The notes under the pieces were generated by a model that saw only the letters and a program-made list of their open reading frames with translations, searched no databases and was not told the origin of the DNA. The position numbers and the translations under genes were made by a program. From the NCBI GenBank assembly GCA_027460535.1, contig JAPZAR010000018.1:37146-69145 (forward strand): a DNA stretch of 32,000 bases, read 5' to 3'. Shown here piece by piece: positions 3,821-5,959 of the stretch; position 1 is the first letter of the stretch, and each line of letters begins with the position of its first letter. The stretch is from Candidatus Methanoperedens sp. Lineage in GTDB: Archaea; Halobacteriota; Methanosarcinia; Methanosarcinales; Methanoperedenaceae.

Positions 3821-5959
3821 TTACAAACCATCAAGGAATTCTAGTGCTATTCGCCTTCTTTCGACAAAATCAGGCAGATATGAACCTGGTATTAATCCTG
3901 TTATTTCATAGCGGTAACGAATAAAATCTTTATTCTGTCGCAAGAAATTTCTTATCTCATCAATCCATTCTTCATGACCAGCTTCTCGATAAACTTGCGC
4001 ATGGGCATCAAAAACGTCATTAATATCAAAGAATGTTTTTCTCGGAAGATGACTTGGTACTTCGGCAGAGAAGTAGGCATGATCGCCTGCCTCCAGAGCA
4101 ACACTACGGCCTTTTGCCGTTGGGATTCCAAAATATTCCATTAACCTATCTTCAAGCAGATGGTGGGCTTCAATTGTACTTTCATCTATTCCACGCCGTC
4201 CTGTAAGTCCTGTTTCTCTTACATAATTGAGGACCTCATCGTAATTTCCAAATATATCTCCTTTAGGCCTTATCTCCACTGTTGGGTATCTAGCGTCAGG
4301 CCATATTGCTTTTGAAGGGCCCATTGGCTTATAACCAGCCTTTATTAGTTGTTCATACATCGGCGAGAATGTCTCTCGAGCCGTTACCGCTACAGGTTCT
4401 ACCTCTCGTACTCCAGCAGAGGCGAATTCATCCATGCGCCTTATTATGAGTTCTGCCTTGTTTAGCTCCTCTGCTGGAATTTCACCCCCCTGGCGTATTA
4501 AGAGAGTCCAACTTGAGATCCGACTTCTTTCTGCTTGAGTTAGATTTGAAGCAGCTTTAACAATATCTGCAATTTCGTCGGGGTGACGTCCAATTGATTT
4601 AGCTATACGTGTTGCTCCACGCAGGGCACCACCCCCTGCTAATGGAAGTAAAGCGCCAATTCCCATTAAAACTAAATCTGTTCCAGTTAAGGGTCGTCCC
4701 CATTTATCATAACCTTCAAAAATTCCATAAAAAAATTCTGCAATATCTGTGAGGTCACCTACTACAGGTATTAATCCTATGGCAGTGTCGGTGATTGCTT
4801 TTGCAAAAATTTGTTCATTTGGTTCATAGTAAGTCGCTTCAAAAGTTGTCAGTTGACGCCCAACAGGCTTAATCGATGTCCCTTGAACAGGCACTTGAGT
4901 AACACTAGGAACCTCATATACTTCTAAAATGGGATCCGCTAATTCAATGTTTCCCAATACAACTTCTTGCTTGGGGGTTTGAGCTTCTGTTGCTCTATTT
5001 ACGAAAAATTTTGTGGAAGGTGTTTTTACTACTTTTATTATAGATACATTTTTAGGATAACTAAGAGCCAAAGGGTTAGCTGGAATCAATTCATAGGCGA
5101 AGCGAGCCGTGCCCAAAAAACTTGGTGCTGTGATTTCAAATACATCCCCTGAAGCCGTGTGTATTATATCAATCCCATCAGGGCGTTTCTTGACAACAAG
5201 AGGAGGAGGACCTGCTACTCCGTAAACAGGTTGCATTCCTACATAATGTGATGGAATTACTGGATCTCCCTGAAGTGGAACAAGTGCAGGGTCTTGGACG
5301 CGATAAATTTCAAGTGATGGATACTTGGGACCTAAAATACATAACTCTGGATAACCTTCTGTCCGAATTGAAACCCCTGGTGCAACTACTAACCGAATGA
5401 TTGGATAATCCCTTTTTTCAAACGAAGTTAAGAATTGATAAGCAAATGGTGCTTTTGCGATTCTCACTTCAGGACTTACTTCTAAAATCACGCGTATTTC
5501 AGAAGTAAAATATCTATAAATTAATGTACCGCCCGATGGAGATACCCTGGCATCAAAAGAGTATTCTGTTGGTATTGTATATATAGCGGTCTCGGTTCCT
5601 TCTTCTTTTATCGGTTGCCGCTTCAGTTCATCATTTTCACATTTCGGGCATGCCCTCTGAATGCTGGGTGTACCGCTGGATACTGCCTGCGGCTGCGGCA
5701 TCCTCATCACCGCATCCGCTACCCTGTCAGCTTCCCGCTCATAAACATCGCCGGGCGCGCCTATCCTGAGCTTTGCCTGTAGCGCTCCTGACTTCATGAG
5801 CCTCTGCACAGCCTGGTTGCCGATGGTTCTTTGAAGAAAGAGAATTTGTTCAACAGGTGAACTGAGTGGCTTGTATAAATTACCTTTCCGCACCTGCGAA
5901 ACCTGATTCTCTATTTTTTTCTCAGGCGCTTTTACCGTTGTCCTGATTGCCTCACTCAT
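3821..5959 (-). CDS. eCIS-associated effector candidate: shared N-terminal leader, beta-rich middle, PT-TG-like pre-toxin region and C-terminal AHH-like (HNH/EndoVII superfamily) module. It lacks the DUF4157 HExxH core.
   Basis: Residues 1-115 or so are near-identical to the 663-aa and 630-aa ORFs up to KRQPIKEE, then diverge. IPVVGDLTDIAEFFYG...WGRPLTGTDLVLMGIGALLP (4630-4780) resembles the pre-toxin TG domain. IEAHHLLEDRLMEYFGI...GDHAYF (about 4090-4175) resembles the AHH nuclease signature. Confidence 0.6.
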   Translation of the reverse strand: MSEAIRTTVKAPEKKIENQVSQVRKGNLYKPLSSPVEQILFLQRTIGNQAVQRLMKSGALQAKLRIGAPGDVYEREADRVADAVMRMPQPQAVSSGTPSIQRACPKCENDELKRQPIKEEGTETAIYTIPTEYSFDARVSPSGGTLIYRYFTSEIRVILEVSPEVRIAKAPFAYQFLTSFEKRDYPIIRLVVAPGVSIRTEGYPELCILGPKYPSLEIYRVQDPALVPLQGDPVIPSHYVGMQPVYGVAGPPPLVVKKRPDGIDIIHTASGDVFEITAPSFLGTARFAYELIPANPLALSYPKNVSIIKVVKTPSTKFFVNRATEAQTPKQEVVLGNIELADPILEVYEVPSVTQVPVQGTSIKPVGRQLTTFEATYYEPNEQIFAKAITDTAIGLIPVVGDLTDIAEFFYGIFEGYDKWGRPLTGTDLVLMGIGALLPLAGGGALRGATRIAKSIGRHPDEIADIVKAASNLTQAERSRISSWTLLIRQGGEIPAEELNKAELIIRRMDEFASAGVREVEPVAVTARETFSPMYEQLIKAGYKPMGPSKAIWPDARYPTVEIRPKGDIFGNYDEVLNYVRETGLTGRRGIDESTIEAHHLLEDRLMEYFGIPTAKGRSVALEAGDHAYFSAEVPSHLPRKTFFDINDVFDAHAQVYREAGHEEWIDEIRNFLRQNKDFIRYRYEITGLIPGSYLPDFVERRRIALEFLDGL

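Follow-up and report, generated by a model that had tools for sequence, protein, structure and literature searches.

We find that an open reading frame (ORF) of 712 amino acids (aa) from the archaeon Candidatus Methanoperedens sp., located in a 32,000-nt stretch of contig JAPZAR010000018.1 (positions 37,146 to 69,145; the whole stretch is called the window below), encodes a three-part protein in which the leader of an array of effectors, encoded downstream of an eCIS (extracellular contractile injection system), is joined directly to a module of ~390 aa and a C-terminal tip. The marker domain of the neighbouring effectors, eCIS_core (the former DUF4157), is absent from it. We read the gene as a functional eCIS effector consisting of a loading leader, a constant pre-toxin or entry module and a metal-dependent tip that is probably a nuclease of the His-Me type, and we consider the chances for and against this reading as a whole to be evenly balanced. 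That the protein is an effector of modular build we hold to be highly probable, whereas the nuclease chemistry of the tip is put forward tentatively, at somewhat less than an even chance. The first-pass annotation of this DNA had placed the ORF correctly and had omitted its strand, which is minus. The three parts, delimited by BLASTP against a first set of homologues (leader, aa 1-~123; module, ~124-515; tip, ~519-712), and the genes needed for the comparison below are the following.

3821-5959, minus strand: effector 3 of the cargo array, 712 aa, ATG start, stop included (ORF list and translation)
5600-5959, minus strand: putative loading leader, aa 1-120 (identity to paralogues; DNA repeat D1)
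4415-5590, minus strand: conserved module of pre-toxin pattern, aa ~124-515 (homologue identity)
3824-4405, minus strand: C-terminal tip, aa 519-712, a putative enzymatic toxin from a family without a name (HMMER, AlphaFold2 model)
6224-8215, minus strand: effector 2, leader plus eCIS_core (Pfam, alignment)
9338-11230, minus strand: effector 1, leader plus eCIS_core plus OmpA (Pfam, alignment)
16222-31985, minus strand: eCIS structural genes upstream of the effectors (Pfam)

Over aa 1-120 the leader, with the motifs LQRTIGNQAVQRL, GDVYEREADRVADAVMRMPQP and CPKC, shows 85.8% protein identity to the 6224-8215 paralogue; for the 9338-11230 paralogue the value is 67%, over aa 1-132. The DNA at 5599-5898 matches 7855-8154 (89%) and 10870-11169 (80%). 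Similarity to the paralogues stops sharply at aa ~120, at QPIKEE. Both paralogues match Pfam eCIS_core (PF13699) with E ~5e-30; at E <= 1 no match to this family is obtained with the 712-aa protein, nor is the acidic linker of the paralogues, DEEEKLQRKPVEEEEEE, present in it. Thus, the first-pass annotation was right that the ORF begins with the leader of its paralogues, skips the acidic linker and the HExxH domain and so separates leader from core: one and the same array has the same leader with and without the DUF4157 core, which supports their separability. More than 100 relatives of the leader were found at 50-87% identity, the named ones mostly being annotated as 'DUF4157 domain-containing protein [Candidatus Methanoperedens sp.]', and among the contigs of species-representative genomes a single leader locus was matched, in a metagenome-assembled genome of Ca. 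Methanoperedens. These relatives point to a host that is very probably a methane-oxidising archaeon of the ANME-2d group. The leader-bearing sibling effectors of Methanoperedens-type arrays carry mostly cell-wall-directed domains (OmpA, GH24 lysozyme, VanY, YkuD, M23, PG_binding). In seven proteins (P0020, P0063, P0066, P0076, P0100, P0113 and P0116) the leader motif GD-x-x-E-x-EAD-x-VA occurs two to three times, and judged by its sequence it appears to behave as a short repeatable unit.

The ORF lies about eight genes downstream of the eCIS structural genes, on the same strand. By Pfam, these encode CIS_tube, hub, Phage_base_V spike, PAAR, gp25 and Tail_P2_I proteins, a pair of Baseplate_J proteins and a fibre-like protein of 1152 aa. 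The reading frame is unbroken across 2.1 kb, and an identical protein is on record on two contigs, the longest of 69 kb. We suggest that the protein is cargo of the eCIS encoded upstream of it, and that the leader (aa 1-120) would be the signal common to the effectors of the array that directs them into the tube lumen. This loading role is proposed by analogy with PVC and with AlgoCIS, where the N-terminal domain of the cargo was found to be required for loading and DUF4157 to be dispensable (bioRxiv 10.64898/2026.05.27.728243, 2026 preprint). No immunity gene lies next to the 712-aa effector, and beside the tip-bearing genes P0121, P0127, P0132, P0148 and P0126 the contigs were short or there was no conserved neighbour; a missing adjacent immunity gene would not be out of place here, as it is common among eCIS toxins.

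Past the leader follows the module, in which we distinguish four segments.

5252-5506, minus strand: beta-rich repeat 1, aa ~152-236 (PFAYQFL, YPIIRLVVAPGVSI, EIYRVQDPALVPLQG; hhalign)
4865-5161, minus strand: beta-rich repeat 2, aa ~267-365 (RFAYELIP, SIIKVVKTPSTKF, LEVYEVPSVTQVPVQG; hhalign and invariant columns in the module alignment, A3)
4625-4810, minus strand: hydrophobic helical hairpin, aa ~384-445 (AIGLIPVVGDLTDIAEFFYGIFEGYDKWGRPLTGTDLVLMGIGALLPLAGG; DUF4112 and PT-TG matches below cutoff)
4415-4588, minus strand: module linker, presumably helical, aa ~458-515 (RHPDEIADIV ... LIRQGGEIPAEELNKAELIIRRMDE; conserved in A3 until the tips of the homologues diverge)

The two repeats, of ~90 aa each, are homologous to one another (hhalign of the two halves of A3, probability 98%, E = 1.3e-13) and have in common the pattern FAY-x-F/E ... 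I-R/K-hV-x-P ... hY-R/E-V ... VP-x-QG, and the hairpin reads AIGLIPVVGDL...GYDKWGRPL...LVLMGIGALLPLAGG. In the query, the module matches no Pfam family above threshold, and a sequence profile search of the PDB with it was empty. The module is rare, with about a dozen relatives (13 counted); identity is 31-40% over ~390 aa to P0002, P0003, P0004, P0005, P0010, P0013, P0045 and P0060, and P0122-P0125 were found later. Because these homologues diverge completely past the module, into at least four unrelated tips, the module shows the pattern of a pre-toxin domain, i.e., what its sequence suggests to be a conserved carrier before exchangeable tips. The polymorphic-toxin logic assumed in the first-pass annotation is thereby borne out in the module, and likewise in the tip, whose family ends many different carriers. 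We propose that the module would act as a constant carrier whose most likely task in the target cell would be to interact with membranes or to help the tip enter.

Several relatives of the module are themselves linked to eCIS. In P0002, P0003 and P0010, eCIS_core lies upstream of the module, and P0003, which has DUF4157 upstream of its module, is encoded in the middle of an eCIS cluster, with the AAA+ ATPase on one side and the spike on the other. P0004 is also encoded inside an eCIS cluster. Just before its called start (10001, frame 2), at 9392-9956 on the plus strand of L002, tblastn finds a leader-like stretch in frame 2 and a DUF4157 core in frame 0; probably the gene calls at this place are wrong or the gene is frameshifted, and going by the sequence P0004 is likely to be a protein of leader, DUF4157, module and tip. 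The leaderless relatives P0013, P0045, P0060 (Thermomonospora echinospora), P0122, P0123 and P0124 have another tip in common (FRILKGN...FSDNI...FEVKSG), which by appearance is possibly restriction-endonuclease-like. P0013 and P0060 follow a conserved gene trio that ends in a 109-aa Trypco1/Pepco gene (L003 6614-12217; L010 6704-12400), and such loci look like a defence-type rather than a secretion context. P0124 comes from an ascomycete, Cadophora sp. DSE1049; it aligns over 86% of the module with 25% identity, has the tip of the Trypco1-linked bacterial proteins, and may represent a transfer from bacteria to fungus.

The family of the tip is larger than that of the module. A word-indexed search returned a single relative, P0121, with the motif EVHH, whereas an exhaustive HMMER search found 78 (counted as representative clusters), 26 of them at E < 1e-30. 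The tip domain ends at most 12 residues from the C-terminus in 56 of the 78, and in 30 carriers it is preceded by more than 150 residues; it also occurs as short standalone proteins. Among the carriers, four have eCIS_core, about nine have eCIS-type N-terminal motifs and three have PG_binding_1, and one, P0143, has WXG100 at its N-terminus, which indicates a route of the type VII secretion system (T7SS) kind. An Ntox1 match in one of the 49 carriers scanned from set A6 (E = 3.7e-7) was judged to lie outside the tip, since no tip-only segment matched. In an alignment of 39 tip sequences, no variation is seen at G567, H600, H627 and Y657, and H599 is nearly invariant (38/39); also conserved are E597 (35/39), D or E at position 626 (35/39), D645 (33/39) and H653 (32/39). 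A zinc site of the form HxxE...H was considered and dropped, as E603 is not conserved (P, T, H or Q in 7/39). The residues on which our proposal for the site centres are these.

4160-4171, minus strand: E597-A598-H599-H600, closing a predicted beta strand (alignment; model strand, tip residues 86-90)
4079-4084, minus strand: D626-H627, where the helix after the second strand begins (alignment; model helix, tip residues 114-127)
3989-3991, minus strand: Y657, invariant Tyr within the tip's helical part (39 of 39 sequences)

The structure of the tip was predicted by AlphaFold2 with the 39-sequence alignment, which gave a predicted local distance difference test score (pLDDT) of 95.4 and a predicted template modelling score (pTM) of 0.89; an input of two sequences gave only pLDDT 50. 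In tip numbering, the model runs from an N-terminal helix through a small PNGD-x-x-G hairpin and a further helix to strand 86-90 (IEAHH), then through a short helix (94-100) to strand 108-113 (RSVALE), helix 114-127, which opens at D-H, and a C-terminal part of four helices, with Y657 among its residues. Read as an order of elements, not as atomic coordinates, this layout, with HH at the end of a strand, a second strand and a helix opening with His, plausibly fits a His-Me finger. The spacing from HH to H is 27 residues in the tip, not far from the 24-25 residues in colicin E9. We suggest that the tip would be a toxic enzyme, most likely a metal-dependent His-Me-finger (HNH/EndoVII-like) nuclease acting on nucleic acid of the target, with a presumed site composed of E597-x-H599-H600 at the strand end, D626-H627 at the helix start and the invariant Y657.

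A number of results weigh against this interpretation. Foldseek found no neighbour of the tip model (best E 0.77 in the PDB and 0.03 in BFVD; TM < 0.25), and profile searches of the PDB with the whole tip and with a 50-residue core were empty. In a Pfam scan of the 39 tip domains, neither AHH (PF14412) nor any other family of the HNH fold was matched at E <= 1 (0/39). Comparison of the tip profile with the DNase of colicin E9 by hhalign gave a probability of 0.2%, and the local match TIEAHH/VYELHH is insignificant. No conserved Asn lies between H600 and H627 in the alignment, and a second helix His is absent from the query's own subfamily: the spacing H-x4-H (EHMNLVHG) occurs only in a divergent subfamily, and the query has S631. 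Of the nuclease fold that the first-pass annotation expected structure prediction to reveal, a beta-beta-alpha-type order is plausible in a confident model, and neither Foldseek nor hhalign links it to nucleases. As to delivery, no AAA+ loading ATPase is encoded in the window, the P0013 and P0060 loci have no eCIS genes nearby, which fits a secretion-related role of the module poorly, and the role of the module in membrane interaction or tip entry is one that we purely infer.

The most serious competitor concerns the tip alone, namely that it is toxic but not a nuclease, being instead a His/Tyr-dependent metallohydrolase or other hydrolase, directed at the envelope, protein or a small molecule, with a fold of its own. 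The predominance of cell-wall-directed domains among the sibling effectors and the PG_binding_1 domains of three tip carriers would suit this possibility, as would a confident model for which neither the PDB nor BFVD holds a neighbour, and the three conserved His, the Asp/Glu and the Tyr would serve a zinc hydrolase equally well. However, no hydrolase family is matched either, the Glu of the would-be HxxE motif is replaced in 7/39 sequences, and the order of strand with HH, strand, and helix with H at a spacing of ~27 residues is that of His-Me fingers (the local YELHH/IEAHH match with colicin E9 being insignificant). We therefore regard a non-nuclease tip as unlikely, although by no means negligible, and favor the nuclease.

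Much further down stands the literal form of the first-pass annotation, a bona fide Pfam PT-TG middle followed by a Tox-AHH (HNH/EndoVII) C-terminus, which we find very doubtful. All the stretches on which it relied are present and lie in family-conserved regions (aa 397-412, IPVVGDLTDIAEFFYG; aa 420-439, WGRPLTGTDLVLMGIGALLP; aa 596-612, IEAHHLLEDRLMEYFGI; aa 625-630, GDHAYF); it is the assignment to PT-TG and AHH on the strength of them that did not hold. The gathering cutoffs are 23.5 bits for PT-TG (PF14449) and 23.3 bits for DUF4112 (PF13430). Pfam finds no PT-TG in the full 712-aa protein, and the hairpin, isolated as a 79-aa segment, scores 13.4 bits (E = 0.076) against PT-TG and 19.8 bits (E = 9.3e-4) against DUF4112, both below cutoff, with 15.9 bits against DUF4112 for the full protein. 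Among ten homologue segments, PT-TG matches five at E <= 0.081 (best 21.1 bits; P0004, E = 3e-4) and none passes; DUF4112, which fits better, matches nine, and its cutoff is passed only by the P0125 segment (28.2 bits) and by full-length P0003 (24.2 bits). As these sub-cutoff matches fall at the same place in the homologues each time, a remote relationship of the hairpin to an IPxxGD-type helical segment is likely, and the recurrence speaks to some extent for PT-TG; membership in either family is not established. The 'TG' of LTGTD is not conserved in the module family, where G-x-D-[RK]-W-G-R is conserved instead, and a 2026 survey describes Gly, Asp and Arg in PT-TG as better conserved than the nominal TG (PMC13483458). 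The hairpin and linker sit directly N-terminal to the exchangeable toxin domains.

For the tip, some features of the motifs speak for AHH. The query reads EAHH, Ala is the commonest residue before HH (25/39), the HH pair stands at the end of a model strand, and HH with the invariant H and Y recalls the '[AG]HH, N, H, H, Y' that defines Tox-AHH (PMC3482391). Yet the [AG]HH tripeptide of Tox-AHH is nearly absolutely conserved (PMC3113570; PMC3482391), whereas A or G precedes HH in only 26 of the 39 tips: besides Ala, position 598 holds S in six, V in four and G, K and T once each, with P and I in other members of the family. No tip matches PF14412, a conserved Asn is missing, the query lacks the second helix His, Y657 lies 30 residues past H627, and PVC is not among the delivery routes given for Tox-AHH (Zhang et al., 2012).

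The leader-to-cassette fusion is directly evident in the gene, and its surroundings bear the marks of cassette exchange.

8317-8973, minus strand: intact 218-aa CxxCxxCC gene, between effectors 1 and 2 (Pfam)
5976-6198, minus strand: remnant of the 3' part of a CxxCxxCC gene, directly upstream of effector 3 (tblastn; repeats D4, D6, D7)
3587-3778 (3608-3763 in a narrower delimitation), minus strand: second remnant of a CxxCxxCC gene tail, downstream of effector 3 (repeats D2, D5; tblastn)
3317-3499, minus strand: truncated leader-only ORF, 60 aa, after the downstream remnant (ORF list; tblastn)

By tblastn, the upstream remnant is 69-75% identical to aa 135-212 of the 8317-8973 product and the downstream remnant 71% identical to the CxxCxxCC tail. 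The leader of the 60-aa ORF, which ends after ...LMKSGAQ, is 93% identical to that of effector 2, and the ORF has the appearance of a stub orphaned when cassettes were exchanged. The array has thus seen the unit of CxxCxxCC gene tail plus leader copied three times or more, and this unit looks like a recombination handle; a Methanoperedens relative (L005) keeps the order effector, CxxCxxCC homologue (12609-13154), leader. We infer from the repeat scars that recombination at the end of the leader (QPIKEE) would have removed the acidic linker and the zincin-like DUF4157/eCIS_core domain, and that the leader would in this way have been joined to a cassette of module and tip that other lineages also possess. 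That such shuffling left an inert chimera, which has lost DUF4157, is no longer loaded or active and is heading toward the state of the leader stub, would agree with the gene remnants on both flanks, the stub after the ORF and the presence of DUF4157 upstream of the module in all other eCIS-linked members of its family, but is highly improbable given a frame intact over 2.1 kb, the retention of all invariant and near-invariant residues of the module and tip families, the dispensability of DUF4157 for AlgoCIS loading and the record of the identical protein on two contigs.

Some further observations concern the array and its neighbours. The 218-aa CxxCxxCC product is PF03692-like and putatively Zn/Fe-chelating, and a role as chaperone, as immunity protein or as a mere recombination handle of its gene is conceivable. 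In effector 2, aa ~250-663 give no Pfam match; because ~410 residues past eCIS_core are thus without annotation, this effector would seem to carry another unannotated cargo domain. Effector 1 has an OmpA-like peptidoglycan-binding domain after its core and then ~250 unannotated residues. Three genes that may be accessory or regulatory parts of the system occupy the interval from the eCIS fibre gene to the first effector, at 11519-14862 (minus strand). They encode a protein of 154 aa, a multi-pass membrane protein of 577 aa whose sequence includes an M48 peptidase domain and a Cys-rich C-terminal end, and a TPR protein with a hydrophobic segment at its N-terminus. At the other end of the array, 1716-2726 (minus strand) encodes a 336-aa protein with weak Nal1-like (serine-protease-type) matches, and just downstream of it 1441-1668 (minus strand) duplicates part of this protein's N-terminus, with 45% identity over 76 aa.

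Taking module and tip together, one may go further and suppose that the ~390 aa form a mobile module not described before, a toxin carrier or a unit for membrane entry, which bacterial and archaeal eCIS cargo, Trypco1/Pepco defence loci and a fungus have in common, and that the tip is a new clade of His-Me nucleases or a wholly new toxin fold moving between eCIS and T7SS-type carriers. We offer this as a speculation that is on balance improbable. If it is true, the gene would show an archaeal eCIS that loads cargo by means of the leader alone. The array itself amounts to a natural control, with one leader on three bodies, two with DUF4157 and one without, and as this agrees with leader-only loading in the AlgoCIS experiments, the leader of this uncultured archaeal eCIS is a candidate tag for engineered cargo. 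Both unnamed domain families, the module and the ~195-aa tip, could join the catalogues of toxins.

The link between eCIS and polymorphic toxins, which the first-pass annotation saw in this gene, was described in 2012. In that study, toxins of the 'PVC-metallopeptidase' (DUF4157) type from bacteria and euryarchaea were found to combine one constant N-terminus, by recombination, with various tips of polymorphic toxins, among them HNH, LHH, WHH, HHH and DHNNK of the HNH fold, and many PVC toxins had no adjacent immunity genes (Zhang et al., 2012, PMC3482391). DUF4157 was later reported in 36% of eCIS toxins, the remaining 64% being without it, and the DUF4157-less genes often adjoin DUF4157 genes (Danov et al., 2024, PMC11297309). 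The array described here resembles the PVC toxins and eCIS-associated toxins (Geller, 2021, PMC8213781; PMC3482391; PMC11297309) in being a set of paralogues downstream of an eCIS cluster, in combining a constant N-terminus with a variable C-terminal toxin, in the lack of an adjacent immunity gene and in its euryarchaeal host, from a group already recorded with such toxins. It differs in that the 712-aa protein lacks the marker DUF4157/eCIS_core yet keeps the leader of its DUF4157-bearing neighbours, and in that both of its remaining domains are unannotated.

With the AlgoCIS cargo Cgo1/Cgo2 and the PVC payloads Pdp1/Pnf the protein shares a layout in which a loading region (presumed here) stands at the N-terminus, DUF4157 is optional and the effector part is C-terminal, and it is a natural counterpart, known here from sequence alone, of the AlgoCIS constructs that still load after deletion of DUF4157. 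Unlike in those systems, the leader sequence is unrelated, belonging to a Methanoperedens-type family, and a module of 390 aa is inserted between leader and tip. PT-TG and DUF4112 resemble the hairpin in being short helical or hydrophobic segments that contain a motif of IPxxGD type as well as a G-x-D ... R stretch and that lie on the N-terminal side of exchangeable toxin domains, but the query falls below both cutoffs, the nominal TG is not conserved in the module family, and the segment is here embedded in a far larger module with two beta-rich repeats.

The tip, finally, is comparable to Tox-AHH and to LHH, WHH, SHH, GHH and EHHH (Zhang, 2011, PMC3113570; Zhang et al., 2012), in which, as in the tip going by its model, HH stands at the end of a strand, and a His on the next helix and a Tyr are conserved; like these, it ends polymorphic carriers, and its divergent subfamily has the second helix His. 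It differs from them in having no match to their hidden Markov models, a variable residue before HH, no conserved Asn and a short helix inserted between the two strands, and its flanks (the N-terminal PNGD-x-x-G hairpin and the C-terminal helical bundle) make it a domain of ~195 aa without a structural neighbour. In conclusion, it is already known that leader and core can be separated, that eCIS proteins can bear tips of the polymorphic type and that eCIS toxins are assembled by cassette exchange. Specific to the present case are the natural versions of one leader with and without the core in an archaeal array, the unnamed module and the unnamed tip family, of which only the two domains are new.

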